A DNA stretch of 64,000 bases, taken from positions 1,248,001 to 1,312,000 of the forward strand of contig CAWBKB010000001.1 of assembly GCA_963789265.1 (NCBI GenBank). Direction: 5' to 3'. The position numbers and the translations under genes were made by a program. Below are positions 42,348-60,054 of this stretch, one piece after another; position 1 is the stretch's first letter, and each line of letters begins with the position of its first letter. Below the pieces are notes generated by a model. It did no database searches. It was not told where the DNA came from and saw only the letters and a list, made by a program, of their open reading frames with translations. Source of the DNA: an uncultured delta proteobacterium (GTDB taxonomy: Bacteria; Desulfobacterota; Desulfomonilia; Desulfomonilales; Desulfomonilaceae).

Positions 42348-43460
42348 CTATTCTCCTGTAGCCGCGGCGACCATTGCCCGAACATTATCCAATTTGGCAT
42401 TGACCGGAATATCGCAGCCCGAATGTAAGATGAATCCCTCGGGTCCCAATGTTTCGATGAGTTTGGTGCAATATTCGTGGACGGCATCCGGTGAACCCAT
42501 GCTCAGCATAGTGGCCGGCACATCGCCCATCAGACACATATGATCTCCGAGCAGTTCCTTAGCCTTGAAAAGGTCTGTTTGACCGTCTGTCGCCATGATG
42601 CATTTTCCTTTGGGCAGCTCTCTGAAGCGGGCCAGATCGCGGGTCCAATTGGCATCCAGATGTAAAATGGCCACCAGTCCGCGGTCGATGACATCATTGA
42701 CCATCTTGCTATAGTATGGCCAAACAAAACGGTCCCACAGTTTGGGCGACAGCATCTGGCTGGCCGATCGCCAGCCGCCCAACCATATACCCGTGTAACC
42801 GCCATTCACGCTAATGTCCAGAAACGGGCCGTACACATGGGGTGCAATCAAATCCATGACCGCTTGAACTTTGTCAGGGATTGTAAACAGGTCGTGGATG
42901 AATTTGGTCATGGAGCGTCCGCCGCAGAGCATTTCAAAGGGTGAAGACAGGGGAACACCGGCAGTGAGCACTGGAATCCCCAGGGGATCACAGACCGTTT
43001 TTGCATCAAAGGGTGGTTGGTTGAAAGGCAAAAGCTCTGGAGCCACGTCGTTGAAGACACGGTTGTGCATATAATCTTCATAAAACTCAGGCCAGCCTTT
43101 GTCCAAGATCGTGTCATAGTCTTCGATCTTCATCAATTCCGATTCAGCCACCTGATAGGGCACGTCATGGTCCAGTTCCTTGCCGGGAATTTTGACCTTC
43201 GAAAGCCACAATTGGCTCAACCCGTAGGTGGCAAACCCCAGGTAGTCGGTGCCGTCGGCATCGCCGCACAGCTCATAGGTCTTGATCATCGCTTCGGCCG
43301 AATTGACGACGGATGCACAGAAATCTCCGAATGGCATTCCCACCGTTTTGGCGGCAAACAGTGCGTAAAGCAGAACCACAGGAGTTCGGTCAGGCTTCTC
43401 CAGTGCAATAGCTTTTCGGATGCGAGCCATTCTCTCCTTCAGAAGGTCAGCTTTGTTCAT
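42348..43460 (-). CDS. UroD-family corrinoid methyltransferase-like protein (MtaA/CmuA superfamily)
   Basis: KPDRTPV, LSPKLWDRFVWPY, LHLD, CLMGDVP, FILHSGCDIP. Confidence 0.88.
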   Translation of the reverse strand: MNKADLLKERMARIRKAIALEKPDRTPVVLLYALFAAKTVGMPFGDFCASVVNSAEAMIKTYELCGDADGTDYLGFATYGLSQLWLSKVKIPGKELDHDVPYQVAESELMKIEDYDTILDKGWPEFYEDYMHNRVFNDVAPELLPFNQPPFDAKTVCDPLGIPVLTAGVPLSSPFEMLCGGRSMTKFIHDLFTIPDKVQAVMDLIAPHVYGPFLDISVNGGYTGIWLGGWRSASQMLSPKLWDRFVWPYYSKMVNDVIDRGLVAILHLDANWTRDLARFRELPKGKCIMATDGQTDLFKAKELLGDHMCLMGDVPATMLSMGSPDAVHEYCTKLIETLGPEGFILHSGCDIPVNAKLDNVRAMVAAATGE

Positions 43461-44092
43461 GTCGATCCTCCAGCCAATTTCTGAGCTGTGATCACGGCCG
43501 AGTTGGCATCCGGGCAAAAAGCGTCCGCTCCTACATACTTGCAGGCATCCGCTGTGATGGCGGCACCTCCGATCATGATGGACAAGTCTGTACGCAATCC
43601 CGCGTTTTGTATGGCATCCACGGTCCCCTTGAGGCTTTCGAATGCCGAGGTCAGCAAACAGGATAGGCCCACCACTGAGGGGTGATGAGTCTTGATTGCC
43701 TCCATGAAAGCTTCGGCCGGCTGATCCACGCCGAGATCCACTACTTTAAATCCCTGGCAACCCAAGAGATTAGCGACAATGTCCTTGCCAATGTCGTGGA
43801 TGTCTCCTTTCACCGTGCCAATCACATACGTACCGTACTTGGAATCACTTTCATCCTCGGCACTCATGCGCTTCTTCACGCCTTCCACCGCCTGCTTGAA
43901 GATAGTCGCCGACATGATGAGCTCGGACAAAAAGTAGTTCTCCGCTTCATACTCTTCGCCGACCTGCCGCATGCCGTCCTGGAGGGCGGCAAGAATCTTT
44001 ATGGGATCGGCTCCCTGCTCGTTGAGCCGTCGCACCTCGGAAAGCACGGCGGCTTCATCCAAGTTCTTCATGAAAGTGGTAAGCTGGACCAT
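43457..44092 (-). CDS. Corrinoid (B12-binding) methyl-carrier protein
   Basis: Cap domain YFLSELIM; GTVKGDIHDIGK (DxHxxG); DLGVD; GLSCL; IGGA. Confidence 0.93.
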   Translation of the reverse strand: MVQLTTFMKNLDEAAVLSEVRRLNEQGADPIKILAALQDGMRQVGEEYEAENYFLSELIMSATIFKQAVEGVKKRMSAEDESDSKYGTYVIGTVKGDIHDIGKDIVANLLGCQGFKVVDLGVDQPAEAFMEAIKTHHPSVVGLSCLLTSAFESLKGTVDAIQNAGLRTDLSIMIGGAAITADACKYVGADAFCPDANSAVITAQKLAGGST

Positions 44093-44140
44093 ATTGACCT
44101 CATGTCTCATCTGATGGACCCCGGGAAAGCTTGAGCTCGC

Positions 44141-45418
44141 CTATGAAATGGGAACTAAGCTTCCTGCAGCAGGAATCTCGGGATGCTCGCGATTGTAAAC
44201 AACGGTAACCTCCCAGGGCCATTTCTTACCCTTGCGCCATTGGCCGCCGACTACCGGTGTGCGGCAGTAATTGTCTTTATTGAATTGGATATGCCCCACC
44301 ATGGTCTTCAGGTTGGTCGCAGCGATGTTCTTGCGCAAGACTTCCTTGTTCAGACTTCCGGAGCGCTTGAGTACATCCGCTGCGATTTCGTAGGCTGCGT
44401 ACTCATATCCCAAGGGTTGGGTCCAACATTTGCCCGCGCCCTTTTCATAGGCGTCGCACAACTCCTTGGCGCTGTAGCCTGTCAGGGAGGAGGAATACGG
44501 ATGATCCGGACTCCACCAAACCTCAGTGCTGATACCCTCGGCCAAGTTCCCGCCCATGGCGTCCATAGCCGACGGAAAGAGGCACGCTCTGCCAATGGTG
44601 GCCACCTTGGGTTTGTATCCCATCTGGAAGCATTGGCGCCAACAGGAGATCCAGTCGGGTGGGCTGGTATTTCCCACGATGATGTCGACATTTTCTTTGC
44701 GCCACTTGTCAATATATGCGCTATAGTCCTTGGCCCCGGGTTGGAACATTCCCTCATCGATCACAGTATACCCTTTGGGCCCCAACAGGTGCTTGAAAGT
44801 ATTGTACCAGGGAATGCCGCCCGGGTCAGAGGCGAAGAACAAGCCGACCTTTTTATTGGTGGGCACCTGCTCCCACATTCCTGTATAGATCGGTACAATA
44901 TCATCCACCACTGTCCAGAAGCTCAAAAATGCCCACTTGTGGGGGGCATTTTCGATAAAGGAATCCAGGGGAGAGTCCAGCGCAATGCACGGCATCTGAT
45001 AGCGTTCGCAAACAGATGTCACCGGGTCCACGGTGGTAGGCGCATGTAACACTACCATCAAATCTACTTTATCTCCGAGGATGAGCTTAGAGGCCATCTC
45101 GGCAGCAGTGTTGGGATCGCTCTGTGTATCCGCCACCTTGACCTTAACCGGAAGTTTTTTCCCAGCCGCTTTGATGAAGATGCCGCCGTCGCGGTTGATC
45201 TCCCCGACCACTCGTTTGGTCAGCCACATCGTGGGTTCTCCGAATGGCGCCAGGGGACCGGTCAAGGGGCTTGGCTGACCAATCAGAATATAATCGCGCT
45301 GGGCCGCCGCTGCTGTTCCGACTAATCGGGGCGACAGCATTGCAACACCGGCGGTGGCCGCACCAGCGGCTAGTTGTTTGATAAACCTTCTTCGATCGAT
45401 ACCGCTGCCTCTTTTCAT
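44141..45418 (-). CDS. LIV-family ABC substrate-binding protein with Tat signal
   Basis: IDRRRFIK twin-arginine leader; PLTGPLAPFG, DTQSDP; RBS AAAGGAG. Confidence 0.9.
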   Translation of the reverse strand: MKRGSGIDRRRFIKQLAAGAATAGVAMLSPRLVGTAAAAQRDYILIGQPSPLTGPLAPFGEPTMWLTKRVVGEINRDGGIFIKAAGKKLPVKVKVADTQSDPNTAAEMASKLILGDKVDLMVVLHAPTTVDPVTSVCERYQMPCIALDSPLDSFIENAPHKWAFLSFWTVVDDIVPIYTGMWEQVPTNKKVGLFFASDPGGIPWYNTFKHLLGPKGYTVIDEGMFQPGAKDYSAYIDKWRKENVDIIVGNTSPPDWISCWRQCFQMGYKPKVATIGRACLFPSAMDAMGGNLAEGISTEVWWSPDHPYSSSLTGYSAKELCDAYEKGAGKCWTQPLGYEYAAYEIAADVLKRSGSLNKEVLRKNIAATNLKTMVGHIQFNKDNYCRTPVVGGQWRKGKKWPWEVTVVYNREHPEIPAAGSLVPIS

Positions 45419-45468
45419 CTGCAACTCCTTTCGCTGCGTGTGGGGTTATGGACGGACGATCCGCCAAA

Positions 45469-46410
45469 CTACATCCTTCGGGGCGATAGAAACTCGAACC
45501 CGATTTTTTCCTGAACCGTACCCATGATACCTTTGGGCATCAGCAGCATGATCACTACGCTAACCGTGCCTAAAATTATCATGCTGATGCTTGCGTACTC
45601 CGCTAAATACTGCTGAAATAGGACGAAGATCAGCGCACCGATAATGGGCCCTTCAATGGTTCCAATGCCGCCAATGATGACGATGAAACACAGATTGACG
45701 GTCCATCCAATGTCAAACGCTTTGTAAGGTTGAATATAGACTTGGTTGAGGAATAGAACGCCGGAAGTGATTCCGGTGACGCAAGCGGCAATCAAGAAGC
45801 AAAGCAACTTAGAGCGGAAGATATTGATACCGATGCTCCGACAAACCCCTACATCGTCGCGCATGGCCATCAGACTGAGTCCCAGGCGGGAACGCAGCAG
45901 TAAATAGACCAGCGCGACCGAGCCGATGCCCATGCAGATCGCCATGTAGTAGATCTGGTTGATGGAAAGGGTATAGGCCGCCTTAATGAAAACGCCCGAA
46001 CCTTTTTTGGTAAGGTCCCAGTTGGAAAACCAGATCATCAGAGCTTCGGCCACAATCCAGGAGCCGATGGCAAAATAGACGCCGCTCATGCGAAAGATGG
46101 GCACAGAGATGATCAGGGCAAAGAGGACGCTCACCAGGCCGCCCGTTATGATGCTCAGCCAAATCGGCCAGTGGAAATTGAGGGTCATAATCGCCAAGGT
46201 GTAGCCGCCCAGGCCGATAAAGATCTGCTGACCCAATGAGATCAGTCCGGAATATCCGGCCAAAAGGTTCCACATTTGGGCAAGAGCCAAATAGAGCCCA
46301 AAGATCATAAATACGAGGACAAAGTATTGCGAACTCCAGAGGGGCAAAGTGAACAACGCTCCAAGAATCGCTAGAATCGCCACAAAACGCCAATATTGGG
46401 CCATCATCAT
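45469..46410 (-). CDS. LIV-type ABC permease (LivM-like)
   Basis: WNLLAGYSGLISLGQQ, IIGGIGTIEGP. Confidence 0.92.
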   Translation of the reverse strand: MMMAQYWRFVAILAILGALFTLPLWSSQYFVLVFMIFGLYLALAQMWNLLAGYSGLISLGQQIFIGLGGYTLAIMTLNFHWPIWLSIITGGLVSVLFALIISVPIFRMSGVYFAIGSWIVAEALMIWFSNWDLTKKGSGVFIKAAYTLSINQIYYMAICMGIGSVALVYLLLRSRLGLSLMAMRDDVGVCRSIGINIFRSKLLCFLIAACVTGITSGVLFLNQVYIQPYKAFDIGWTVNLCFIVIIGGIGTIEGPIIGALIFVLFQQYLAEYASISMIILGTVSVVIMLLMPKGIMGTVQEKIGFEFLSPRRM

Positions 46411-46411
46411 T

Positions 46412-47284
46412 TCATGCCACCCTCTCTGCCTTGCCGAATAAGCCCTGGGGCCGAATTGTTAGCACGGTGAGCAAGATCAAATATCCGGATAGAAGCTGAT
46501 ACCCGGGTCCCAAGAAATGTGCTCCCAAGACCTGGGCCAGTCCCAGGATCACCCCGCCCACAAGAGTGCCGACCAAGGAACCCACACCGCCGATGATGAC
46601 CACGCCGAAGGCGATAATGAGATATTGGGGGCCAGTATGAGGGAAAAAGGTAAAGGTAGTCCCCACCATCACGCCCGCCACGGACGCAGTCAGCATGGAA
46701 AGGCCCATGGCGTAGGCGAAGACGCGGTGGGTGTCGACTCCCATGAATTGTGCAGCTTCAGCATCGTCGGAGGCTGCCCGAATGGCCAGACCGAGGTAGT
46801 TGTAGCGGAAAAAGAGAAGTATCCCTCCGATGACAATCAGGCCTATCACACAGCCCACGAGGTAGATGACCGGTATGCCGCAATTTTTCGAAACATAGAT
46901 GCTTTTGACCGCAAGAGAAGTCGATAGGGATCGGGCATCAGGGGAAAAGATCGTCAGCAGGGCATTCTGAAGAATAATGGACACACCAAAGGCAACGATC
47001 AGAGGAGGTTCCATGCCCTTGTCCAGCACCCGGTTGAGGATGAATATTTGCAGCAGGACTCCAACAGCAAACATTACCGGGATAACCATTACCAGGGCTA
47101 GGTAGGGGGAGATGCCAAACTCCGTTGCTAAAACCAGGGTAAGGTAGCTTGCGAGGATCATCAAGTCGCCGTGGGCCAGATTGACCAGACGCATGATACC
47201 GAAGATCATGGATAGGCCGACCCCCACGGTGGCATAGATGATGCCAAGCAGAATGCCGTTAATCAAAGGCTGAATGAGGTCCAC
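46412..47284 (-). CDS. LIV-type ABC permease (LivH-like)
   Basis: GLSMIFGIMRLVNLAHG, RPQGLFG. Confidence 0.92.
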   Translation of the reverse strand: MDLIQPLINGILLGIIYATVGVGLSMIFGIMRLVNLAHGDLMILASYLTLVLATEFGISPYLALVMVIPVMFAVGVLLQIFILNRVLDKGMEPPLIVAFGVSIILQNALLTIFSPDARSLSTSLAVKSIYVSKNCGIPVIYLVGCVIGLIVIGGILLFFRYNYLGLAIRAASDDAEAAQFMGVDTHRVFAYAMGLSMLTASVAGVMVGTTFTFFPHTGPQYLIIAFGVVIIGGVGSLVGTLVGGVILGLAQVLGAHFLGPGYQLLSGYLILLTVLTIRPQGLFGKAERVA

Positions 47285-47302
47285 GTAACACCTCGCGTCA
47301 AA

Positions 47303-48019
47303 TTAAAGACCAAAATAGGCTTTCTTAACAGCCTCTTCGGTCAAATTCTTCGGATCGCCCTGCAAAGCAACCTTGCCTTCCTGCATGACAAAGGCCCAAT
47401 CCGCTGCCTTCAAGCTTCTCTGGATATCCTGCTCAACCAGAATCAGAGTGACGCCCTCGCCGTTGATCTCCTTGAGTTTGCTGTAGATATTATTAATGAT
47501 CACCGGAGCCAAGCCGAGGGAAATCTCATCGAATAGGATCAGACGGGGCTCGGACATCAAGGCGCGTCCTATGGCAAGCATCTGCTGTTCCCCACCGCTC
47601 AAGTTTGTTCCCAATTGATTAATTCGTTCCATCAGGCGAGGAAACAACTGGCACACCTTTTCAAGATTCTGCTTTCGATTTTTACGGGCCCTCATCGCAT
47701 AGGCCCCAATCAGCAGGTTTTCCCGCACGGTCAGGCGCTGAAAGATGCGGCGCCCTTCCGGTACCAGGGCCAGGCCGTTTGCCAAAGTCTGGTACGGGGT
47801 CAAAGAGGTGATCATCTCTCCTCGGAAAACCACCTGGCCACGGCTGGGTTGCAAAGCGCCCGCGATAGTTTTCAGCAGGGTCGATTTGCCGGCGCCGTTG
47901 GCGCCGATGATTGAAACCGTGCTGCCCGCGGCGACATTCAGAGAGACATCCCAAATGGCTTGAAATTCACCGTAGTGTACATCCAACTGATGGACGCTCA
48001 GGACAGATTCCGATCCCAT
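47303..48019 (-). CDS. LIV-type ABC ATPase (LivF-like)
   Basis: GANGAGKST, LSGGEQQM, DEISLGLAP. Confidence 0.93.
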   Translation of the reverse strand: MGSESVLSVHQLDVHYGEFQAIWDVSLNVAAGSTVSIIGANGAGKSTLLKTIAGALQPSRGQVVFRGEMITSLTPYQTLANGLALVPEGRRIFQRLTVRENLLIGAYAMRARKNRKQNLEKVCQLFPRLMERINQLGTNLSGGEQQMLAIGRALMSEPRLILFDEISLGLAPVIINNIYSKLKEINGEGVTLILVEQDIQRSLKAADWAFVMQEGKVALQGDPKNLTEEAVKKAYFGL

Positions 48020-48741
48020 CAGCCCTCCTGAATTCCTAGGTAGCACTGTAATACTTCTTTGGCGTTCATGACCTCCTGGGGACCCCCGCAGATAAGCATT
48101 CCACCTTGATCCAGGGCCAGGATTCGATCCACTCCACTCATCATCATGAGAATGTGTTCAATCCACACCACAGTCACCCCGTTGTCTCGAATCTGATGGA
48201 CGATTTCGAGGACTTGTCGTGATTCCGCTTCAGTCAACCCGGCGGCAACCTCGTCCAGAAGCAGTAAAGAGGGCTTCGTGGCCATTGCACGGGCCAGTTC
48301 CAGACGCTTACGATCCAACAATCGCAAGGTCCTGGCAAAATGGTGACGACAGTTGCTAAGGCCGGTAAAGACCAAGATTTGGTCCGCTTCGATGCGGGCC
48401 CTTTTTTCGGTAAGACCGCCCCCGTGTGTCGCGGCCACCAACAAATTTTCCAGAACGGTCATATTGCCGAAGGGCCGCGGAATCTGGTAGGTTCGGCCAA
48501 TACCCTTCCTGGAACGCTGGTCAGCCGAACTCTTCGTGATATCGCTACCTTCAAAATAGATTTTGCCTCGGTCCGGTGGATAGACACCGGTTAAGACATT
48601 GAAAAGGGTGGTCTTGCCCGAACCATTAGGCCCCAGTATGCCCAGAATCTCCCCCTGCCTTACGTCCATCGTGAGACCGGTGAGTGCTTGAACCTTTCCG
48701 AAGGCCTTTGCCAGGTTTTCCGTTTTCAGTAGCTCCGTCAT
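48019..48741 (-). CDS. LIV-type ABC ATPase (LivG-like)
   Basis: GPNGSGKTT, RKRLELARA, LLDEVAAG, WIEH. Confidence 0.93.
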   Translation of the reverse strand: MTELLKTENLAKAFGKVQALTGLTMDVRQGEILGILGPNGSGKTTLFNVLTGVYPPDRGKIYFEGSDITKSSADQRSRKGIGRTYQIPRPFGNMTVLENLLVAATHGGGLTEKRARIEADQILVFTGLSNCRHHFARTLRLLDRKRLELARAMATKPSLLLLDEVAAGLTEAESRQVLEIVHQIRDNGVTVVWIEHILMMMSGVDRILALDQGGMLICGGPQEVMNAKEVLQCYLGIQEG

Positions 48742-50886
48742 TGCCTATTCTCGCTGTCAGCGCTCGATGCCCTGTAAATCTTACACAATACACCCCTGAG
48801 GGGCTCTGCTCCGATATCCGGGTCATAGTCCATGTCCCCGTAGAGCACGTTAAGATTTGATCTTTGCCATCCGTAATCCGGCGGTCCTTCCTCCGGGAAC
48901 CACCAGCCGGGCTGGGCACCGATAACGTCTCTGCGAATGTCCCGGGTCAGCTTGGCACGTTGAGTCATTCTCCCCTCGGATGTTTCGATCCAAATCCAAT
49001 CATCGTCTGAGATCCCGTAGTGCCCTGCTGTGTCAGGATGCAGGTACACCACCGGGTCCGGGTGGCGGCGACGCAAGCGTTGGATCTGACGCCCCTCACT
49101 GAGGAAAAATTCTTGAATGCGACCCGAAGCTGTTAATATCAATGGATACTGTGCAAGAAGTTTCGGTGTTGACAGGGGACTGATCGCCGGTTCCCTGTAG
49201 ATCGGCAAAGGTTCCACATTAATGGTTTTCAAAGCTTCCGAATAAAACTCGAATTTTCCCGAAGGAGTGGCAAAACCGTATTCCCGATATTTGTAGTAAC
49301 GTTGCTCCGCCTGGACTATACCTTTGCGGCAGAATTCTTCGAAATCCATTCCGCTGGGCGCTAGGACCCAGTTGAGGTAGTCCCGGTAATCTCTCCAGGG
49401 AAATGCGTCGGCAAGTCCCAGACGCTGGGCCATTTCAAGCAGCACCGAACGGTCGGCACGGGTTTCTCCTATCTGGGCCAGCTTGGGCCGTGCCAGGATG
49501 CACCAGATTTTATGCAGGCAGGCCACATCTTCGGTTTCGAGCCAAGAGGCTGCGGGCAGTACCAGATCTGCCATTTGAGCGGTGGGAGTCATAAAAAGAT
49601 CCGACACCACGACAAACTTCAGTAGACCCAAAGCTTTCTTGACTTCATGGACATGAGTGGCGGTGATCATCGGATTGGAGCCTACGATCCATAGAGCCTC
49701 CATCCGGTAAGGCCGGGCCGAAATGATGGACTGCCAAAAAGAGGGTTCCTGTATTCCAGGATTCAAGGGGAATCGGTCGGCATCGATACTACGCTCCCTT
49801 TTTTGCGGTGGAAGAAAGGCAGCACCTGACAGCGAGGGTTCGTGCCACGGTGATTTTCGAAACACCGGTGCCGGCGCTATCCACAGGGCGTCCCCGCCGG
49901 GGCGGTCAATATTGCCTGTCAGGGCGCTCAGAGTCAGAATGGCCCGTGCGGTCTGAAAACTGCCAGCGGTTCATATCCAGCGCATGGCCCCACTGGATGC
50001 AGGCTGGTCGAGTACTGGCATAAGTTCGGGTTGCCTGGCGGATCAGGTCCGTCTCAATGCCGGTTATCCTTGAGGCCCATTCGGGACTAAATTGACGCAC
50101 ATGGGCCTTCAGGGCGTCAAAGCCCAGCGTATGCTCGCGTACAAATTCATGGTCAATCAAATCTTCTTCCATCAACAAATGGATCATCGCAAGAGCCAGG
50201 GCCCCGTCCGTCCCCGGCCGGATTTGGAGAAAGTGAGTGGCCTTGCGGGCCGGGCCGTTGCGTATCGGGTCCACCACGATAACTTTTTCAGCCGTTTTAA
50301 GGGCACGCTTCACCATGCCGCCGCACATGCCGTCAGCAGCGCCGCTTTCGGTAACGTTACAGCCCCAGATCAGCACGCAGGCCGGCCGCTGCCCTCCGAA
50401 ACCGTAGACATCGGCCACAGGCAGTTGGCCGCAAGAGTAGCGAGAAGCCATCTGTCGTGCAAGGTAGCAAAAATGGAGGGGTTCGGTCATATTGGGTGTG
50501 CCGAAGGCGTTGGCGAAGCGTGCCACAAAGCCCGAATAGGCGCGCCCCGTACCCTGCATCATTCCCAGATATTCACTTTTTCCGGCCTTGCGCAAGGCGT
50601 CGAATTTTTCCGTCATCTCGGTCAAGGCTTCTTCCCACGAGATGGGGGTCCATTCGTTGGCCCCGCGCTGGCCGCGGCGACGCAGCGGGCGGGTCAGGCG
50701 GTCCGGGTGATAGAGCAAATCCACAGACGCGGCGCCCTTGGTGCACAGATATCCCCGACTGGTGGGGCTTTCGGGATCGCCGGTGATCTTGACGACCTTT
50801 TGGCCTTTCAGATGGACCTGAACCTGGCACACACCATGGCACATCCGACAGGCCGAGGTGACCGATTCTATGCTGTTTTTCATCAT
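48738..50886 (-). CDS. Cytoplasmic Mo/W-bisPGD enzyme, acetylene-hydratase-like (about 715 aa); frameshift at about 49956-49964
   Basis: CRMCHGVC...C [4Fe-4S]; HFCY putative Cys ligand; IRPGTDGAL; TGNIDRPGG after repair; DLFMTPTAQMADLVLPAA; FATPSGK; no Tat leader; no partner Fe-S subunit. Confidence 0.85.
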
Positions 50887-51837: not shown

Positions 51838-51838
51838 A

Positions 51839-52774
51839 TCAATCATCCTGTTGTCGTTTTTTTTGAGAAGCGATCAGATGGAGCAAAAGTCCTTTCCGGA
51901 CTGCCGCCATCTTCTTTTGGTCCCAACTTGAAAATCCTTTCCCGGACTTAAATCCGAAATGTCCATCATTCACGAGCTTTTGGAGATAGGGCGACGGCCG
52001 CGGAGAACTTTCAATGTGCTTGAGGACGTAATCGTGGATAGAAAGTGTCAAGTCGGTTCCCACGAGGTCTGCGTTTTCCAAAGGTCCCAGGAACGGTAAC
52101 CGCAGGCCGAAGCTGTATTTCACGCACTCGTCGACTGTGGCGGCATCGGCGATGCCGTTTTCGACGATGGAGATGGCTTCGCGCCACAGTGCGTGTTGCA
52201 TTCTGTTGGCTACAAAGCCGGGCACATCCTTCTTGACCTTAACAGGATGCTTGCCTGCCTCTGCGAGCAAGCCGAAGATTCGATCAACAGTCTCCGGCGC
52301 CGTATCGCGGCCCGGCACCACTTCAACCAAGGGAATCAAGTAGGGCGGATTCCAAAAATGAGTTCCGACGATGCGCCTTCGACATCTTGAAGGGCTTGCA
52401 ATTTCTGTAATGCTGATCACTGAAGTGTTGGATGCCAGGACTGCTTGCTCGGGGCAATACTCATCCAATTGCTTGAATAGCCGTTGCTTGAGTTTCAGAT
52501 CTTCCGGAACCGCCTCGAAGACTACGTCCGCCTTAGCAACGCCCTCGCGCAGATTCGTTGTGAAACAAATGCCATCGAGTCCCGTTTCCTTTTTTCGCGC
52601 CGATATCACACCGTTTTCGAACAGGAGTGTCAAATTGGCTTGAATCTGTTCCCGTGCGTGGTTCAGCACTTGTTCGCTAATATCCACCAAGGTGACCGGA
52701 TGCCCTTCAACGGCAAAAATCATGGCAATGCCATGTCCCATCAACCCTGCGCCGACAACGACAATTTGTTCCAT
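51839..52774 (-). CDS. 3-hydroxyacyl-CoA dehydrogenase family NAD enzyme; candidate 3-hydroxy-5-oxohexanoate dehydrogenase
   Basis: GAGLMGHG, EAVPEDLKLK, SNTS, THFWNPPYLIPLVE, GFVANR. Confidence 0.88.
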   Translation of the reverse strand: MEQIVVVGAGLMGHGIAMIFAVEGHPVTLVDISEQVLNHAREQIQANLTLLFENGVISARKKETGLDGICFTTNLREGVAKADVVFEAVPEDLKLKQRLFKQLDEYCPEQAVLASNTSVISITEIASPSRCRRRIVGTHFWNPPYLIPLVEVVPGRDTAPETVDRIFGLLAEAGKHPVKVKKDVPGFVANRMQHALWREAISIVENGIADAATVDECVKYSFGLRLPFLGPLENADLVGTDLTLSIHDYVLKHIESSPRPSPYLQKLVNDGHFGFKSGKGFSSWDQKKMAAVRKGLLLHLIASQKKRQQDD

Positions 52775-52789
52775 GCCAATCCTTCTCTT

Positions 52790-53569
52790 CTAGCCCGCGG
52801 AGTAGCCACCATCCACGTTGAGAATTGCTCCGGTCATAAAATCTGAGGCCTTGGACGACAGATAGATCAGGGTACCAAGAAAGTCTTCGGGTTCGCCCAA
52901 TCGGCCTACGGGGATTCTTTTGAGGAAATTCAGATAGAATGCCTTGTCGTCGAACATCCATTGGGTCAAGGCGGTGCGGAAGACAGTGGGAGCTATGGCG
53001 TTGACATTGATTTTGTGCGGTCCCCATTCGCACCCCAAGGTTTTGGCCAAAAGATGAATGGCCCCTTTGGAGGGACTGTAGGCCGAGTAGTTGGCCATGC
53101 CCAGTTCGCCTCGCGCTGAACCAAGCAGCACCACTTTGCCGCCGCGGCCCTGGGCGATCATGACCTTGCCAACCTCTTTGCAGAAGAGATAGGTGCCCTT
53201 AACATTGGCATCCATGATCATTTCCCATTCTTCAAGCGGCTGCTGGACGATGGGGCCGGGTTTGTTGACGCCGGCGGCAGTGATAAGAATGTCGATGCCT
53301 CCGAAGGTGCTCAGAGTATCGGCTACGATTTTGGCTACGGCAACTGGGTCTGTGGGAGGCCCGGCCGAGAAAGCCGCCGTACCTCCGGCAGCTTCTATTT
53401 CGGCTATCAGGGATTTCAAGGTCTCTGGACTGCGGCCGGTCGCCATTATTTTTACACCGCTGGTTGCCAGTCCCAGACAGGCGGCTTTGCCGAATCCGCC
53501 CGTGGCACCGGTAATCAGGGCAACCTTGCCGGACACATCAAACAGAGCGCTTATTTCGTCCTTATTCAT
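52790..53569 (-). CDS. SDR oxidoreductase, probably NADPH-dependent; candidate phloroglucinol reductase
   Basis: TGATGGFG, basic residue after beta2 (TGRS), YSPSK, APTVFR; substrate call is from cluster context. Confidence 0.85.
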   Translation of the reverse strand: MNKDEISALFDVSGKVALITGATGGFGKAACLGLATSGVKIMATGRSPETLKSLIAEIEAAGGTAAFSAGPPTDPVAVAKIVADTLSTFGGIDILITAAGVNKPGPIVQQPLEEWEMIMDANVKGTYLFCKEVGKVMIAQGRGGKVVLLGSARGELGMANYSAYSPSKGAIHLLAKTLGCEWGPHKINVNAIAPTVFRTALTQWMFDDKAFYLNFLKRIPVGRLGEPEDFLGTLIYLSSKASDFMTGAILNVDGGYSAG

Positions 53570-53608
53570 GCTTCAACCTCGTGAGGGTTTGCTGTGTGAT
53601 CTTTGCTA

Positions 53609-53953
53609 TCAATCCGGATAATTGATGATTACCAGCATGCTGGCCGGCCTGGGCGTCTTATTTATCACGCTACGCCCCTCATTGGGGCCTAAATAAAGGG
53701 CATCCCACTGCCTCAAAACGTGCTCTTCGGTGCTGCTCTTGACGGTGATTTCCCCTTCCAGCACAAAGTAGATTTTCTCCAAGGGGTTGTCTTCGTAAGC
53801 CCACTCCGCACCGCCGCCCGGCAAAAAATGGGAGAGACCCATCCAGAATTTCTGCGCCCCGGTCTCTTCCTTGCCGATCAAGCGCATCGCGGTCATATTG
53901 AAATGCTTTGGAGCTCCATACGGCTTAACATCCTTAAGTTCCACCTTTTTCAT
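53609..53953 (-). CDS. Small cupin-domain protein
   Basis: SHFLPGGGAE...EKIYFVLEGE...LGPNEGRSV; RBS AGGGG. Confidence 0.85.
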   Translation of the reverse strand: MKKVELKDVKPYGAPKHFNMTAMRLIGKEETGAQKFWMGLSHFLPGGGAEWAYEDNPLEKIYFVLEGEITVKSSTEEHVLRQWDALYLGPNEGRSVINKTPRPASMLVIINYPD

Positions 53954-54038
53954 GCTTTCTTCGCCCCTTTCGCTAAAATTGGTCCGATGAGGTTCGGCGT
54001 GGCGAGGTTTACCCCGCCTGTGGCTCTCTAGATCTTTA

Positions 54039-55408
54039 TCACTGCCTTGAAAAGCTGTACTCATCCTGAACAAGCAGGATTGCGAGGGCAGCGACCAGAA
54101 CCGGGTACGGCCAAACCCATGAAGTTGACAAATAGTGACACCTTTATATGGATCAAAACGCCGGCCAGCGTCGGGCCAAAGATGGCACCCAGCCGACCGA
54201 TGCCGAAAGCGAAGCCCATCGCTGTGGATCGCATGGCCGGCGGATAGAATAGGGACACATAGCTGTTAGCCAGATTTTGCCCGGCAAAGTAACCGGTACC
54301 CGCCATGGCAACCAGAGTCGCCAACAAATAGAAATCTCTAGTTTGACTCAACAAAGCTATTGAGGCAAAGGCCGTCAAAAAACAAACAGCCAGCGTCGGC
54401 TTGGAGCCGCAACGGTCAGCAATTACCCCGGCAATCTGGCTTCCAAATAAAGCGGCCAGTTGAAGAATTAGCAAGAACAATAGCCCTGATCCCAGAGCAA
54501 AGCCGGCATTCATCATCAGTTTCGGCAACCAAATGCCAAGCCCGAAGATCATGTACATATTCATGAAAAACATGATCCAGAAACAGGATCGTGCTGAACC
54601 CACGGTGTTCACGAAAAAGATCAATAATCGGCGCCCTGCCCGAGCCTTTATCAATGTCAAAAGTTACATCGTCCGGGAAGGGCTCTGCCGGCCGTGCTCT
54701 CCTCAGGATTGCTTTCAATTCCGCAACACGGCCCTCAGCAATTAGACGAGTTGGAGATTCGGGCAGCATCTTCACATATACGGGTAGCAGAAGCAGCGGA
54801 AGAGCACCCAAGTAAAATACCGATCGCCAGCCGAACAAGGGGAAGAGCCATATACTGAAACCGGCGGCAGCTATGCCGCCGACTTGCATACCCGAAAAGA
54901 TCGCCGCAATCATCAGAGCCCGGTTCCTGAGAGGAGCGTACTCCGACGCCAAGGCGACTATGTTGGGCATGACCCCTCCAATTCCTAAGCCTGCGCAAAA
55001 ACGGCACAATCCAAACGTGCCGGGACCATGGGTCGTACCTGTCAACCCGGTGGCCAGGCTGAGCACAGCGACGCAGATGATGACGGCCACCTTTCGGCCG
55101 ATCTTATCCGCCAGCGAACCGAATATCAGTGCGCCTACCGCGGCTCCGATCAACGCATAACTGCCGATGACGCCGGCCTGGGTCGGGTTAATCCCAAACT
55201 CCTTCAGAAGTACAGGAACAGCCGCCCCGTAAATGACCAAGTCATAACCATCGAAGGTGATGATGCAAACTGACAACAAGAACAGGTACGCATGAAAGCT
55301 GGAAAACTTACTCTCATCGAGCCATTTGTTGACGTTCAAAACTGTGCATGTCGATGGGGGGCCGGCTTTTAATAGCCTGAGGTTCCCGGCCATCGTTTGT
55401 CCCTCCAT
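54039..55408 (-). CDS. Aromatic acid:H+ symporter (AAHS/BenK-like MFS); frameshifts at about 54582 and 54099
   Basis: FDGYDL, LADKIGRK, GLGIGGVMPN, LPESP, YPPAMRSTAMG, GRLGAI across joined frames. Confidence 0.85.
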
Positions 55409-55526
55409 CTTTTTTCCTTCGATGAGCGAATTCACGCGAGTTTCGATCTTGGGCGATGACTTGCCGTATATTCTCGAGGCGGCCGGCACGCAGCTATCTG
55501 CCGTGAAAGCAGAGGCATGTCATTGC

Positions 55527-56756
55527 TCATTCCACCGGGAAGTCTACAAACTTGCCGTTCTTCAGGTACCCTGCCTTCTCATACAGGTCGAACTGCGGAG
55601 GGGTGGCGCAACCGCTAGCGTTCATCGGACCGAGAGCGTCTTTGTGGTTTCCAGTCCCGTGTTTGACTAGCGCTGGAGCATAGAGAATGTCGCCGATCTC
55701 CGCTTCGATCCACCGGCTTTCCAAATAAGCCATACCCGGGGCGTCCCAGAAAATGATAGCGTCCTCTGATATGGGATGAACATGAGGTTTAAAGGCAATC
55801 CCCGGCAAATGGCAGGCATTGTGTAGCCCACAGTTTTTGGCCCCCACGCCGGGCCATACGATGAACTTCATGGCTCCGCCGTACCCATGGAAGGGAGCGC
55901 CGCGGTAAATGTTGAAGACCCCGCCCTTCCGAGCAACTTCGCTGTAACCGATCGCTTCCGCTCTGTATCTCCCACCCAGCTCGTTGGCCCTCATCACGCA
56001 TTCCCGCGGAATGGTGTCAGGCACCATGTTGAGCATCAGTTTGTCAACATCTTCGACTTTGAATTCGCCGTTCTGCATTAAGCCGATTTCCTGGTAAAAC
56101 TCTAGAGGAGAAGGGCAGATGTAAGCTAAGGCAACAAAATCTTCTTTGGAATTTGGAGCGCAGCGGGTACCAAACGGGACTCCCATGGGCACGAAAATGA
56201 CGTTGCCGGCCTCGATTCTTTCCCAGCCCGCCTCACCGAGATTGACTTCCCCAGCCCCCCGGATGCAGGTCATGCTCACTTCGGATATGACGCGAATCTG
56301 TGTGTCGAACTTACCGCCAGGCTTGTGAATAAGCAGGTGGAAGGAGACCATGCGTGTGCCTACGGCGGGCCAGCCGATAAGCCGGGTGATGCAACCCTTT
56401 CCGTTCTCGATGTCCAGGCCCTCGTTGATGTTGAAGATAGCCCCTCGAGTGCGAATCTCATCACGAGTGCGGTTATACGCGCGGGCAGGATCGTCTCTAA
56501 GCAGTGGAATTTGCACCTGAGTCTCCTCTAACATGCCTGTCATGCCGAGGAAGGAGTTCCTCCTCGCTGAAAAAAACCAGGCAATCTTGCCGTAATCGGA
56601 ACCGTCAAGACGTAAGGATCCGTCCGCCGTTGCGAAAATCCGCGAGCCAGATGTGCGCATCAACGGAAGAACACTGGAGCATCGCCGGTCATCTTTCCTT
56701 GCCGTCTCAAGCGAATGGAAAAACAATGCATTCTGCACCGGGGCGGTCGTTGACAA
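55527..56756 (-). CDS. Bicupin protein with a metal site only in the C-terminal cupin
   Basis: Internal duplication GAIFNI..IGWP../GGVFNI..IVWP..; C-terminal PHVHPISED...KHGTG; N-terminal counterpart TQIRVISEV...PFGTR. Confidence 0.75.
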   Translation of the reverse strand: MSTTAPVQNALFFHSLETARKDDRRCSSVLPLMRTSGSRIFATADGSLRLDGSDYGKIAWFFSARRNSFLGMTGMLEETQVQIPLLRDDPARAYNRTRDEIRTRGAIFNINEGLDIENGKGCITRLIGWPAVGTRMVSFHLLIHKPGGKFDTQIRVISEVSMTCIRGAGEVNLGEAGWERIEAGNVIFVPMGVPFGTRCAPNSKEDFVALAYICPSPLEFYQEIGLMQNGEFKVEDVDKLMLNMVPDTIPRECVMRANELGGRYRAEAIGYSEVARKGGVFNIYRGAPFHGYGGAMKFIVWPGVGAKNCGLHNACHLPGIAFKPHVHPISEDAIIFWDAPGMAYLESRWIEAEIGDILYAPALVKHGTGNHKDALGPMNASGCATPPQFDLYEKAGYLKNGKFVDFPVE

Positions 56757-56787
56757 CGCCGCCCCTTGAAAAGATCACCCGAATAAG

Positions 56788-57552
56788 TTAGTCCTCTTCT
56801 TCCAAAATGGCCACCAGGCGCACGATGGACCCGTCCCCTTTCTGCCAGCGGATGGGAAAGCCCGAGATGGTCACTCGTTTTCCGACGACCTGCTCCAAAT
56901 CGCCGCCAACGTTTTCCCATCCCATGATGCCGTTGCGCAACAGCAAGTTGTGGCACGGTTCCCAATACGGGAAATCTTCCTTCACCTCCCGGCCGGTCTC
57001 TCGTTTGTACTCTTCGCAAATGTCGGGCCTGAGGGGTCCTCCAGGGCCATGGGGGCCGATAGCCGTTCCCAGTGGATGATCCAGGGCCTGCTGATCCACG
57101 CCCACTGCTTTGACGCCCTTCTGAACAAACCACTCTCCGGCTTCTTTATACAGGCCCGGTGAGTAGCAGAAGTATTCCGTACTGTCGCCCCACTTTTTGT
57201 GCCAACCGGTATGAACGATAACGATATCGTCCTTTTCGATCTTGGGACGTGCGTTTTCCAGATCCTCAGCGGTGATGACGCCCCATTTACCCTTCGGAAT
57301 GTCAACAACCACACCGGTGCCGTAGTATTTTTCCAAAGGAATCTCATCGGTATACTGACCCCCTTCGAACACATGGGCCGGGGAGTCCGCATGAGTGGTG
57401 CAGTGCATGGTGGTGGTAATCACCTGGGAAAGGACCCCGGATTTGGCGTGGTAATGCATGCGTTCGATCTTGACATCCTGAAAATAGGGCCATAGCGGGC
57501 ATTTGTCCCCAAAGGGCTGACTGAGATCGACCAATCTAATCTTCTTGCTCAT
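56788..57552 (-). CDS. Cyclase family (kynurenine formamidase fold) metallohydrolase; candidate ring-opening cyclohydrolase
   Basis: DLSQP, HCTTHADSPAH, HTGW, GVDQQALDHP, H..LL..GI.G.ENVGG, GDGS.VR. Confidence 0.88.
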   Translation of the reverse strand: MSKKIRLVDLSQPFGDKCPLWPYFQDVKIERMHYHAKSGVLSQVITTTMHCTTHADSPAHVFEGGQYTDEIPLEKYYGTGVVVDIPKGKWGVITAEDLENARPKIEKDDIVIVHTGWHKKWGDSTEYFCYSPGLYKEAGEWFVQKGVKAVGVDQQALDHPLGTAIGPHGPGGPLRPDICEEYKRETGREVKEDFPYWEPCHNLLLRNGIMGWENVGGDLEQVVGKRVTISGFPIRWQKGDGSIVRLVAILEEED

Positions 57553-57607
57553 CGCTGTCGCCTCCTCTTTGCTTCGCATATTTTGGGTCGTCGTTTGGTT
57601 GAGGGGC

Positions 57608-57964
57608 CTACTCCTCAATTAGTGTTTTAGAGAGATCTTGCTCATCGTCCCTGAGTTTAACCACGAGATCAAAATCAGAGATGGCAGAGACGCTGTAAAA
57701 CCGCATGCTGGGTCTTTCGACGGCCATGTCCATAACGGCCAGGATGCCACGGAAATCAGCCGAACAAATGTGACGCTTTAGATGTTCGAAGGAATCCCAT
57801 TGCTCAAAAAGGATGAATTCGTTGTCGCATTTGACATCGATCCAGAGTTTGAAATGCCGACAGCCGGGCTGCACCGAAATCGGACCAAGGATGGTGTCAA
57901 AGATGCGCAAGGCTTCTTGAACCTTTGACTGAATCAAGCGCATGCGCAGAATCATCATGTTCAT
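57608..57964 (-). CDS. ABM (antibiotic biosynthesis monooxygenase)-like ferredoxin-fold protein
   Basis: VQPGC..F.L...EQWDS.EHLKRHI.S..F. Confidence 0.7.
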   Translation of the reverse strand: MNMMILRMRLIQSKVQEALRIFDTILGPISVQPGCRHFKLWIDVKCDNEFILFEQWDSFEHLKRHICSADFRGILAVMDMAVERPSMRFYSVSAISDFDLVVKLRDDEQDLSKTLIEE

Positions 57965-58028
57965 GAGAATGCCTGCTGGTTTGTGATATTTCGACATTAA
58001 TTTGATTAAGGTCAGTGACCAATCTTGT

Positions 58029-58044
58029 AACAATAAGCGTGCCA
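58029..58044 (-). promoter_or_regulatory. Putative sigma54 promoter of the catabolic cluster (imperfect -12)
   Basis: TGGCAC-gctta-TTGTT on the minus strand (GG-N10-GT), just downstream of a sigma54 activator gene, AT-rich tract upstream. Confidence 0.45.
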
Positions 58045-58203
58045 TATTGGGTCGACAGGTATCTTGCGATCGTAACATAGTGAAAAGAAATAGTTAAACT
58101 CTATTTGTTCGTATTCGCCAGAGGGCACGATGGAGAAAGAAACTAACGCCATTCCGCTAAGCTAACGAAATAGCGACAAAGAGAGGTGCCGGCCCATGAT
58201 GGG

Positions 58204-60054
58204 TCAGCGCCAAGTCGATGGGGATGAATCCAGTCGGACAATGTTCAATTTTTGCATTTTAGATCGCAGGGTGGACACCTTCAAGCCCAGTAGCCGAGCA
58301 GCTCCTCCGGGGCCGGAAATACGACCTCGAGACTTTCTTAGGGTGTGGAGAATATGATTGCGGATGACATCGTCCAGGAGCTGTTCGTCAGTCTGGATAC
58401 AGTCTTCGGTCTCAAGCAGTCCCACGGTCAATGTGTCACCACTGGTAAGAATCATTGCTCTTTCGATCACATTGCGCAACTGACGGACATTTCCCGGCCA
58501 GTCCTGAGCCTTGAGTAATTCCATGGTTTTGTTGGGGATATATTTTATGGATTTACCCATGCTTTGGGAAAATTCTTTCACAAAGGCCCACACCAGTAAG
58601 GGGATGTCTTCCTGACGCTCTCTTAAAGTCGGCATGGTGATGGGAAAGACATTGAGGCGGTAGTAGAGATCTCGCCGAAACTTCTTTAATTTAACCTGAT
58701 CTGCCAGATTGGAATTGGTGGCGGCAATCACTCGCACATCCACGGAGATGGTTTGTGCGCTGCCCAAGCGCTCAAAGCGATGGTCTTGGAGTACGCTTAA
58801 TAATTTGGCCTGAAGGTCGAGAGGCAAGTCCCCGATTTCGTCCAAGAAGAGGGTCGATTGGTTGGCGGCCTCAAAACGTCCGATTTGTTTGGCGGTGGCA
58901 CCGGTAAAAGCCCCTTTTTCGCGACCGAACAGTTCACCTTCGATTAACGTGGCGGGCAGTGCGGCACAATTGACTTTGATCATTGAGCGACCTTTGCGCG
59001 GGCTCATATTATGAATAGCCCGGGCCAAAATCTCCTTTCCGGTGCCCGTTTCTCCCAAAATGAGCACGCAGGTATCTTTTCCGGCAACTTTTTCTGCGGC
59101 TGCCAGAACCTTCTTTATGGGCAGGGTTTCACCTACAATATCCTCATGCCGGTAGCGGACCTCAATCTCCTCCCGTAAAAAGGTATTCTCCTGCTCCAGT
59201 TGATTTTTCAATTTCCGGATTTCTTCAAGGGCACTTTTCAGCTTGTTTTCCGCTCGCTTGCGTTCGGTCACGTCCCGCGTCAAGGATAACAGGAGGGACT
59301 GGTTAAGGAAATCAAGCCGGCTCAAGCGGACTTCCACCGGGAAGGTGCGCCCATCTTTTCGCCGTTGGGTACCCTCGAAGGTGATATATTCTCCCGAAGC
59401 GAGCCGTTCCCAAAAGCGGTTGCGATGCCTACTTTGAGAAACTTCCAAATCGATGTCAGCGATATTCATCTTCAAGAGTTCGTGCCGGTCGTATCCCAGG
59501 CTTCGACACGCCTCCTGATTGACATCGTAGATATGACCGGCATAGTCGTGGACAAAGAAGGCATCACCGGCTTGTTCTACCAATGTCCGAAATCGGCTTT
59601 CACTTTCGTGCAGGGTAGCTTCGGCTTTTTTCGATGCCGTGATATCCTGAACAAAGCCTTCACTGACTATGTGGCCATCGGCGGTTTTTGCGGGGTGTGC
59701 GCTGATGCTGATCCAGATCGTCTCCCCGTCCATGCGCTTGGCTTGGGCTTCGACTGAATCGACAAACCCGCGGCTGCTCATTTCCGCCACCATGAGATGA
59801 CGATCCTCTGGATGGACCCACAGCTCGCGGGCGTTGGTCACCGATGCCAGGAAAGCCTTTTCGGATTCGTAACCGAATATTTCGGCCATTTTTCGATTCA
59901 CCCAATGAAATTGGCCTTGCAGGGTCACTCGGAAGACCCCCAGGACTGCATGGGCAACTAAATCTTTCCATAGCTTTGCTTCTGAAGATAACTGCGCATT
60001 GCTGCTAAGTAGTCGGTTATTTTCCTCTTTCAGCCGCTTGATCTCTTCAGTCAT
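58204..60054 (-). CDS. PAS-PAS sigma54-dependent activator (FhlA-like AAA+/HTH)
   Basis: Two PAS/PAC; GETGTGKE; GAFTGA; LFLDEIGD; WPGNVRQL; GAARLLGLK.STLRSKM. Confidence 0.95.
   Translation of the reverse strand: MTEEIKRLKEENNRLLSSNAQLSSEAKLWKDLVAHAVLGVFRVTLQGQFHWVNRKMAEIFGYESEKAFLASVTNARELWVHPEDRHLMVAEMSSRGFVDSVEAQAKRMDGETIWISISAHPAKTADGHIVSEGFVQDITASKKAEATLHESESRFRTLVEQAGDAFFVHDYAGHIYDVNQEACRSLGYDRHELLKMNIADIDLEVSQSRHRNRFWERLASGEYITFEGTQRRKDGRTFPVEVRLSRLDFLNQSLLLSLTRDVTERKRAENKLKSALEEIRKLKNQLEQENTFLREEIEVRYRHEDIVGETLPIKKVLAAAEKVAGKDTCVLILGETGTGKEILARAIHNMSPRKGRSMIKVNCAALPATLIEGELFGREKGAFTGATAKQIGRFEAANQSTLFLDEIGDLPLDLQAKLLSVLQDHRFERLGSAQTISVDVRVIAATNSNLADQVKLKKFRRDLYYRLNVFPITMPTLRERQEDIPLLVWAFVKEFSQSMGKSIKYIPNKTMELLKAQDWPGNVRQLRNVIERAMILTSGDTLTVGLLETEDCIQTDEQLLDDVIRNHILHTLRKSRGRISGPGGAARLLGLKVSTLRSKMQKLNIVRLDSSPSTWR

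Follow-up and report, generated by a model that had tools for sequence, protein, structure and literature searches.

A gene cluster probably serving phloroglucinol catabolism, with candidate accessory enzymes, in a soil sulfite-reducing bacterium of the Desulfomonilaceae

The closest described system to the genes studied here is the phloroglucinol (PG) cluster of Clostridium scatologenes, which encodes a PG reductase (CsPGR), a dihydrophloroglucinol cyclohydrolase (CsDPGC), a 3-hydroxy-5-oxohexanoate dehydrogenase (CsTfD) and a triacetate acetoacetate-lyase (CsTAL) (PMC10470551). Sulfate-reducing Deltaproteobacteria and Archaeoglobus have already been named as carriers of this pathway, and the main text of the same paper makes no mention of cupins, corrinoid proteins or demethylation (PMC10470551). 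We analyzed a block of 17 genes in a stretch of 64,000 nucleotides (the window) from contig CAWBKB010000001.1 of an uncultured delta proteobacterium (assembly GCA_963789265.1). The source genome (G000; other G numbers denote comparison genomes and L numbers individual loci) amounts to 6.06 Mb, is 95.6% complete with 6% contamination, and encodes dsrA, ACS and RACo activase; the host is a soil sulfite-reducing bacterium. The block has in common with the C. scatologenes cluster the four enzyme families, a major facilitator superfamily (MFS) transporter and a regulator, as well as the T-x-R-(S/N) motif of PGR and the W-x-Y motif of DPGC (PMC10470551), but it differs in its short-form cyclase, in a BKACE of another subfamily and in the presence of an extra bicupin, an ABM protein, a Mo enzyme, a LIV importer and a corrinoid/UroD pair. 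On sequence comparisons, the block is probably a sigma54-controlled catabolic unit, recently gained or assembled in this lineage, for PG and its near precursors.

The genes were identified from the list of open reading frames (ORFs) and from scans with Pfam and NCBIfam profiles. All are encoded on the minus strand and, read from 60069 down to 42348, follow each other as sigma54 activator, ABM, cyclase, bicupin, MFS, small cupin, short-chain dehydrogenase/reductase (SDR), 3-hydroxyacyl-CoA dehydrogenase family protein, BKACE, Mo enzyme, livG-F-H-M-K, corrinoid protein and UroD protein, so that the 17 co-oriented genes and the families named in the first-pass annotation were all recovered between 42348 and 60069. 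The tight packing also described there holds from the MFS to the UroD gene (gaps of -8 to about 90 nt) but not upstream, where gaps of 239, 253 and 118 nt follow the activator, cyclase and bicupin genes, respectively.

The PGR, DPGC, TfD-like and BKACE genes are co-located, as in the PG cluster of C. scatologenes. Emergencia timonensis, a carrier predicted by the authors in the supplement of PMC10470551, served as the reference in place of C. scatologenes; a query with the DPGC primer of that paper returned six loci, four of which are Emergencia/Eubacterium-type PG clusters and none of which is from C. scatologenes. Among the PDB entries matching the SDR, 5G4K/5G4L came first with 231 bits, the runner-up scoring 159 bits, and 5G4L is a characterised PG reductase (PMC10470551). 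The SDR carries TGRS at the NADPH motif, in agreement with the T-x-R-(S/N) of PGR, shares the substrate-loop signatures PTVFR-x-x-LT-x-WMF and Y-x-NF-x-KR with the Emergencia-type proteins, and groups in the PGR clade, where it forms a single clade with the Emergencia PGR (support 99). Two more SDR subtypes (38-48% to the PGR of this block, and devoid of the PGR substrate-loop signatures) replace or accompany PGR in many other clusters, for example at L084, L097, L117 and L193. In the cyclase, the metal ligands and a W-P-Y motif corresponding to Trp20/Tyr22 of DPGC are kept; the W-x-Y residues are those separating DPGC from isatin hydrolase (PMC10470551), and they are present in 82 of the 82 cyclase relatives with at least 60% identity and missing from distant cyclases. 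The longer Emergencia DPGC nests within the same clade as the short-form cyclase (support 99). Immediately upstream of the G349 cyclase, a SnoaL-like protein is encoded (L189:10420-11292), which is another candidate decarboxylase or cyclase.

The catalytic Ser, His and Asn are retained in the alignment of the dehydrogenase; CsTfD, for its part, has lost the CoA-binding residues Lys56 and Asn221 (PMC10470551). The BKACE scores 389 bits against NF053538, under the cut-off of 430, and its PDB matches are 3LOT (312 bits), 3E02 (282) and 8RIO (255), 3,5-dioxohexanoate being among the confirmed substrates of the 8RIO enzyme (PMC11961710). It is predicted to work like TAL, yet it belongs to the NF053538/8RIO type, outside the CsTAL subfamily. 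The first-pass annotation had matched these four families to the PG pathway and proposed a phylogeny. The assignment is sustained for the reductase and the cyclohydrolase by diagnostic residues, trees and synteny, but not for the BKACE, which lacks the CsTAL Trp and falls in the other subfamily; with the Emergencia stand-ins, the SDR and the cyclase were placed in pathway clades, whereas the clade of the dehydrogenase is shared with a paralogue from the same genome. It is nevertheless highly probable from residues and trees that the core is a member of the C. scatologenes PG pathway by its first two enzymes, and that it works like that pathway overall.

The wider context of the core was surveyed in metagenomes, using the best 80 of 583 cyclase loci (78-92% cyclase identity, 730 kb in total, many loci being partial). 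The small cupin gene was present in 60 of these 80 loci, the SDR in 56, the dehydrogenase in 47, LivK in 29 and the BKACE in 28. Since the set consisting of cyclase, cupin, SDR, dehydrogenase and BKACE recurs across the 80 loci, the cluster is not a chance adjacency. Of the other enzymes, pyrogallol transhydroxylase is encoded most often (18 loci), and PhlG occurs in five; both yield PG, and no other independent evidence on the substrate is as strong as this context. The transhydroxylase AthL/BthL (PDB 4V4C), the Mo enzyme that this cyclase clade usually has upstream, was not found in the source genome. An FmdE-family gene, possibly a maturation factor, recurs immediately after AthL/BthL (L064, L075, L187, L195, L228-L232), and a RidA-family gene recurs in 16 loci. 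The source genome has a separate module at G000:C1:255073 (L110:7587-11192), comprising a PhlG/phloretin hydrolase, an MFS transporter and a Cache-domain sigma54 activator, which could supply PG.

The cyclohydrolase is rare in the phylum: it was detected in 20 of 401 genomes (E<=1e-40), in 2 of 70 genomes of the family and in none of six congeners (76-98% complete). In all five congeners compared, the common flank ends at window positions 41958-41993 and then continues into another region; past this breakpoint, the TPR gene of the congeners runs on into the efp/atp region, which is about 670 kb away in the present assembly. The UroD gene was not found in these five congeners either. The break in the flank, together with the failure to find the cyclohydrolase and the UroD gene in congeners, suggests that the block was gained, or assembled, in this lineage.

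The features of the locus are listed in Table 1. The real starts are probably at 57964 (ABM), 57552 (cyclase), 56534 (bicupin), 53953 (small cupin) and 43460 (UroD). The MFS and Mo genes are each split into two ORFs in the window as assembled. The short-read runs X1/X2 are soil metagenomes from a single study and may stem from the source sample. Their contigs, one at each site with a depth of 3.5-5.3, lack one base at each of positions 49963, 54099 and 54581, and once these three extra bases are removed, the Mo enzyme has 715 aa and the MFS transporter 455 aa, neither with an internal stop. Since the contigs lack these bases and the corrected frames are free of stops, the frameshifts can be attributed to one-base assembly insertions and both genes are intact; pseudogene status was ruled out on the same grounds. 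Further apparent frameshifts, at window 40221-41288, in dsrA (G000:C6:339556-340795) and in a BKACE paralogue (G000:C1:2281940), point to scattered indel errors in the assembly. Outside the block, nested inverted repeats resembling a REP element occur at window 60489-60637 and draw in many unrelated contigs; window 10470-12167 and 19294-29506 hold two genes for BadG/BzdQ-like ATPases together with large genes of the TPR-CHAT and S41 peptidase/Sel1 kinds, all named from their translations without a profile scan.

Table 1. Predicted genes and sites of the cluster, in the order of transcription, with window positions.
Feature	Position	Strand	Basis
PAS-PAS sigma54-dependent activator	58204..60069 (start may be 60054)	-	Pfam PAS x2, Sigma54_activat, HTH_8
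sigma54 (-24/-12) promoter-like site	58030..58044	-	66 nt before ABM start; pattern match
ABM-fold small protein	57608..57964	-	PF03992; first gene behind promoter-like site
Predicted dihydrophloroglucinol cyclohydrolase (DPGC), short 253-aa form	56788..57552	-	PF04199, W-x-Y motif, metal ligands
Bicupin	55527..56534	-	Metal site H-x-H-x3-E...H in the C-terminal barrel; in this copy the N-terminal site is degenerate
Aromatic acid:H+ symporter (AAHS) of the MFS, intact	54039..55408	-	Each piece matches TIGR00895 with a score under the cut-off; two assembly insertions
Small cupin, conserved core member	53609..53953	-	NF050094 (Rv1717 type) below cut-off
Predicted phloroglucinol reductase (PGR), NADPH SDR	52790..53569	-	Best PDB match 5G4K/5G4L; T-x-R-S; clade support 99
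Predicted 3-hydroxy-5-oxohexanoate dehydrogenase (TfD-like)	51839..52774	-	3HCDH; catalytic S/H/N kept
BKACE, 3,5-dioxohexanoate:acetyl-CoA transferase type (predicted TAL function)	50917..51846	-	NF053538, PDB 3LOT/3E02/8RIO
bis-MGD Mo/W enzyme, cytoplasmic, acetylene hydratase/catechol dehydroxylase-like, intact	48738..50886	-	Cys ligand, [4Fe-4S]
LIV-type ABC importer livG-F-H-M-K	44141..48741	-	Profile scans; binding protein with twin-arginine leader
Corrinoid protein (methyl carrier)	43457..44092	-	B12-binding domains; TIGR02370 match under its cut-off
UroD-superfamily methyltransferase I, probable O-demethylase	42348..43460	-	PF01208

The four closest relatives of the activator (75%, 62%, 55% and 53%) all adjoin PG clusters, in G029, G114, G244 and G208, the PAS region matching that of G029 at 75% and that of G244 at 51%. 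The sigma54 pattern has a single exact match in the window; when one mismatch is allowed, three matches are obtained versus 2.07 expected, which is not significant alone. Comparable sites precede the operons of G029, G208, G551 and Emergencia, and a terminator-like hairpin (58147-58175) lies between the activator gene and the promoter-like site. The ABM protein has no match in the 80 metagenome loci and one partial match (36% over 66 aa), behind the sigma54 site of the G029 cluster; it was rejected as a pathway enzyme, this weak match being all that speaks for it. The small cupin shows 59-61% to its counterparts in Emergencia-type clusters. Full-length LIV binding proteins (53-58%) were detected in 11 of the 80 cyclase loci, with a mostly identical gene order, and a paralogue of the binding protein (54%) is encoded elsewhere in the source genome. 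The small cupin and the LIV transporter, to which the first-pass annotation gave no special weight, are conserved parts of the predicted core, with which the putative sigma54 control also recurs.

The bicupin shares the two-barrel cupin fold and a 3His-1Glu site with YxaG, OxdC and ureidoglycine aminohydrolase; it differs from these known enzymes in its low identity to them (10-14%) and in forming a family of its own, tied to anaerobic trihydroxybenzene genes. No PDB sequence matched it at E<=1. Its AlphaFold2 model (pLDDT 94.5) is a two-barrel cupin, the nearest folds of which are quercetinases (Z 23.1 for YxaG, with 13% identity, and 22.4), followed by YlbA, ureidoglycine aminohydrolase and oxalate decarboxylase (Z 19.4-21.0; identities 10-14%). 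As the Z scores are so close across bicupins with unrelated functions, and the identities so low, the function cannot be read from the fold. At E<=0.001 the family comprises 126 representatives, and at E<=1e-20 44 clusters, of which those with names are from anaerobic groups; a search of the ESM Atlas returned generic cupin clusters only, and a plasmid search two weak partial matches. The C-terminal metal site is conserved, and relatives retain part of the N-terminal one, more of it being present in the bicupins of G551 and G398 than in this copy.

The bicupin gene is located within the PG core operon in G551 and adjoins the cyclase gene in G398; L097 combines it with the core, with AthL and with a PhlG-like gene; in G556, G557 and G559, it is found behind AthL-BthL-FmdE and a binding protein, in transhydroxylase operons, and the 3.3-kb contig of G555 has the same local FmdE/binding-protein/LIV order. 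In one metagenome-assembled genome (MAG) from the Syntrophorhabdales, the bicupin and cyclase accessions are four apart. All seven of the other close orthologues with a neighbourhood that was read are in or beside PG/pyrogallol genes or show the same gene order. In one order, represented by 96 genomes, six carry the bicupin and 11 the cyclase, and the six are all among the 11; since these six span three genera, about three events are involved, in addition to those of G000 and L097. Among the 400 other genomes of the phylum, two have a full-length bicupin. G096 has a distant interrupted relative (42%) without PG-type neighbours. Judging from these neighbourhoods, the bicupin is an optional but real, conserved accessory of PG/pyrogallol clusters. 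No cupin, demethylase or tetrahydroxybenzene step was found described for anaerobic PG clusters in the open literature, covered largely at record level; the fungal tetrahydroxybenzene pathway involves a DUF3500 protein and no cupin. The bicupin precedes the gene of an aromatic-acid symporter, the operon has no other decarboxylase candidate, and loci such as G029 (which has a UbiD-like piece and no bicupin) and L030/L060 (amidohydrolases) have such candidates; decarboxylation or a similar reaction was therefore ranked first. The metal-dependent removal of a ring substituent, in the first place the decarboxylation of trihydroxybenzoate, is tentatively the most likely role; that of a tautomerase or lactonase is somewhat unlikely, and an O2-dependent, quercetinase-like role slightly more so.

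Like the corrinoid-dependent O-demethylases (MtvB, OdmB, VdmB, MtoB) and CdmB, the UroD protein is a UroD-fold methyltransferase I (MT1), here translationally coupled to the corrinoid protein (PMC13222342, PMC8630106). Unlike in those systems, only two of the four components are present in the operon: methyltransferase II (MT2) and RACo activase, as well as ACS, are encoded elsewhere in the genome, so that these components would act in trans. The UroD protein is also distant from CdmB (9RUI), its sole PDB match (E 3e-17). Since the UroD superfamily includes haloalkane methyltransferases in addition to these O-demethylases (PMC13222342, PMC8630106), the substrate class of the protein is not fixed. 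Its best match among 400 genomes of the phylum is in G349 (56-57%), where it is coupled to a corrinoid protein (53%) which is likewise the best corrinoid match; this pair is on the same strand as the G349 PG core and about 10 kb from it, and the two UroD proteins are sisters (support 98) in a tree composed of uncharacterised proteins only. The presence of this relative near a PG cluster lends modest support to the predicted O-demethylation. The PG operon of L077 includes genes for a corrinoid protein and for two further UroD proteins, a corrinoid gene is present in L104, and L075 and L080 have MT2 or activase genes. We give an even chance to the idea that the pair O-demethylates methoxylated PG-type rings. 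A DUF362 protein is repeatedly encoded next to PG clusters or to the corrinoid/UroD pair (L104:2253-3518, L040, L192:5444-6709, L215:9930-11198).

The Mo enzyme has in common with the catechol dehydroxylases (Dadh, Dodh; PMC7028382, PMC11887054) and with acetylene hydratase (PDB 2E7Z) a Cys-ligated bis-molybdopterin guanine dinucleotide (bis-MGD) and an N-terminal [4Fe-4S] cluster. It has a four-Cys cluster motif, and a Cys falls, in the alignment, at the position of the metal-ligating residue in acetylene hydratase and PsrA. A His residue occurs where acetylene hydratase has an Asp after the second cluster Cys, which we take to be the catalytic Asp13 of that enzyme. The N-terminal motif is that of the Desulfomonile tiedjei entry in an alignment of dehydroxylase homologues, most of which are uncharacterised, as the authors caution (PMC7028382). 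In a quick tree (33 sequences, SH-aLRT only, no characterised catechol dehydroxylase included), the enzyme is on a long branch together with its own paralogue and G366. It represents a second copy, diverged to 62%, of an enzyme present throughout the genus, the paralogue being carried at 82-91% by congeners devoid of the core. The possibility that it is the transhydroxylase AthL was ruled out by its identity (about 25%) and the lack of PF21423 and of a beta subunit. AthL itself was not found in the source genome by tblastn or with PF21423, the latter being positive in five of ten control PG-cluster genomes, including G029, G349 and G551. A sister Mo clade is linked to PG genes in L030, L057, L060, G244 and G114, the last two of which lack the AthL domain. 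Membership of this PG-linked CKxCHGGC clade was also ruled out, since the enzyme forms a separate branch in the quick tree, a long one of its own. Related Mo enzymes recur in PG clusters, but the present copy, on its own branch, appears to be a separate local recruitment. Members of the CKxCHGGC clade are located at L030:14371-17066, L057:3317-5278, L060:17117-19237, L193 (G244:C3) and L194 (G114:C20), with a small iron-sulfur (FeS) subunit where the locus extends far enough; the motif is that of the Archaeoglobus fulgidus sequence in the dehydroxylase-homologue alignment (PMC7028382).

In the pathway proposed, the SDR would reduce PG with NADPH to dihydrophloroglucinol, the cyclase would open this to 3-hydroxy-5-oxohexanoate, the dehydrogenase would oxidise the latter to triacetate, and the BKACE would convert triacetate into acetoacetate and acetoacetyl-CoA, acetoacetate being recovered by an acetoacetyl-CoA synthetase encoded elsewhere in the genome. 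In the putative upper part, the AAHS symporter would import trihydroxybenzoate and the bicupin would decarboxylate it, while the UroD and corrinoid proteins would strip methyl groups from methoxylated PG-type rings, relying for this on MT2, on the activase and on a Wood-Ljungdahl pathway whose genes lie elsewhere in the genome. The locally recruited Mo enzyme might convert 1,2,3,5-tetrahydroxybenzene into PG in this genome where no transhydroxylase was found. This dehydroxylation is speculative: even if the enzyme does serve the operon, the removal of one hydroxyl from 1,2,3,5-tetrahydroxybenzene to give PG is a rather doubtful assignment.

Several observations weigh against this pathway or parts of it. 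Co-transcription across the 253-nt gap after the cyclase gene, which contains hairpins, is putative. Orthology is anchored on PDB 5G4K and on Emergencia proteins which are themselves only predicted, the dehydrogenase clade with the Emergencia enzyme also contains one paralogue from the source genome, and a BKACE paralogue 57-68% alike exists in that genome. At the site where Trp16 of CsTAL replaces Glu14 of Kce (PMC10470551), the BKACE has Ile and not Trp. This bicupin copy has lost its N-terminal metal site, the carriers of the bicupin come from few lineages (four of the six in one genus), and it is full length in only one of the 80 metagenome loci; G559 has amidohydrolase-type decarboxylase candidates in addition to a bicupin, which weakens the ranking of decarboxylation. 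Four other relatives of the UroD protein (47-54%) are isolated, away from PG genes. The Mo enzyme scores higher against polysulfide reductase (PsrA, 171 bits) than against acetylene hydratase (129 bits), and it has no adjacent FeS subunit, the next gene being livG (4-nt overlap), in contrast to both known types of catechol dehydroxylase, which have such an electron-transfer subunit (PMC7028382, PMC11887054). None of its six nearest outside relatives with a neighbourhood that was read adjoins PG genes, and its clade is not PG-linked; with the genome 95.6% complete, AthL could be absent from the assembly only.

These points bear on how far the accessory genes belong to the pathway. The first-pass annotation had joined the Mo enzyme, bicupin, ABM protein and corrinoid system into one funnel leading to PG. 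Strong linkage upholds this for the bicupin, the corrinoid/UroD pair has modest support and the ABM protein weak support (one 36% match), but the Mo enzyme shows no such linkage, its nearest relatives being outside PG clusters; as a single integrated funnel, the four form a hypothesis which we regard as doubtful. Somewhat less likely is a plain PG operon consisting of the core, small cupin, MFS, LIV transporter and bicupin, in which the Mo enzyme and the corrinoid/UroD pair would be co-located cargo for other substrates. Such cargo would fit with the neighbours of the Mo clade, which are not PG genes, with the origin of the Mo gene as a diverged copy of a genus-wide enzyme, with the five other corrinoid genes, four other UroD genes (several further such pairs among them) and many Mo enzymes of the source genome, and with the rarity of corrinoid (2 of 80) and UroD genes (1 of 80) in the metagenome loci. 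It is more difficult to reconcile with the gaps of only -4 to 50 nt from the BKACE to the UroD gene, the absence of the entire block at this position in five congeners, the finding, in a distant family, of the sister UroD/corrinoid pair close to a PG core, and the fact that PG clusters have repeatedly recruited related Mo enzymes. At the other extreme, the operon might be a complete transhydroxylase-independent entry into PG, combining O-demethylation by the UroD/corrinoid pair, decarboxylation by the bicupin and dehydroxylation of 1,2,3,5-tetrahydroxybenzene by a stand-alone Mo enzyme. Its substrates would then be methoxylated tri- and tetrahydroxybenzenes from lignin and from 6- or 8-methoxyflavonoids, such as 2,6-dimethoxyhydroquinone, 3,4,5-trimethoxyphenol, iretol or their carboxylates, and the sister Mo clade would act alike in the AthL-less sulfate reducers G244 and G114. 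We consider this combined version unlikely.

The two remaining alternatives concern the chemistry itself. The bicupin might be an O2-using, quercetinase-like flavonol dioxygenase releasing a PG-carboxylate depside at oxic-anoxic interfaces, with the Mo enzyme dehydroxylating the catechol product of the B-ring. The top fold matches with quercetinases, the 3His-1Glu site and the adjacent AAHS transporter are in keeping with this idea, but ureidoglycine aminohydrolase, YlbA and also oxalate decarboxylase, at identities of 10-14%, come within 2-4 of those Z scores, the relatives that carry a name are MAGs from anaerobic groups and the cluster has no depside esterase, so that we find it improbable. 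Least probable of all, in our opinion, is that the enzymes of the short-form cyclase clade, with their partners, break down not PG but a 1,3-dihydroxy ring akin to it, be it a substituted PG or some other cyclic 1,3-dione, with the accessory enzymes tailoring that substrate. The identity to the Emergencia-type proteins is indeed just 38-41% for the cyclase, 35% for the dehydrogenase and 36% for the BKACE, and no biochemically characterised short-form cyclase was found in the literature examined; the diagnostic residues are kept, however, and the commonest enzyme neighbour is the PG-producing transhydroxylase (18 of 80 loci, with PhlG in five). The reading as a unit for PG and its near precursors is the one we prefer.

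How plant polyphenol rings are opened without oxygen in soils and wetlands matters for carbon storage, and outside gut clostridia little is known of the genes acting upstream of PG. The core extends the pathway described in 2023 to another sulfite-reducing lineage, as was to be expected, and the value of the locus lies in its accessory enzymes. What is new is a small bicupin family, for which no described function was found, moving with PG/pyrogallol genes across several anaerobic lineages. The methyltransferase sub-clade near PG clusters and the dehydroxylase-like Mo enzymes repeatedly recruited in transhydroxylase-less genomes provide further leads.

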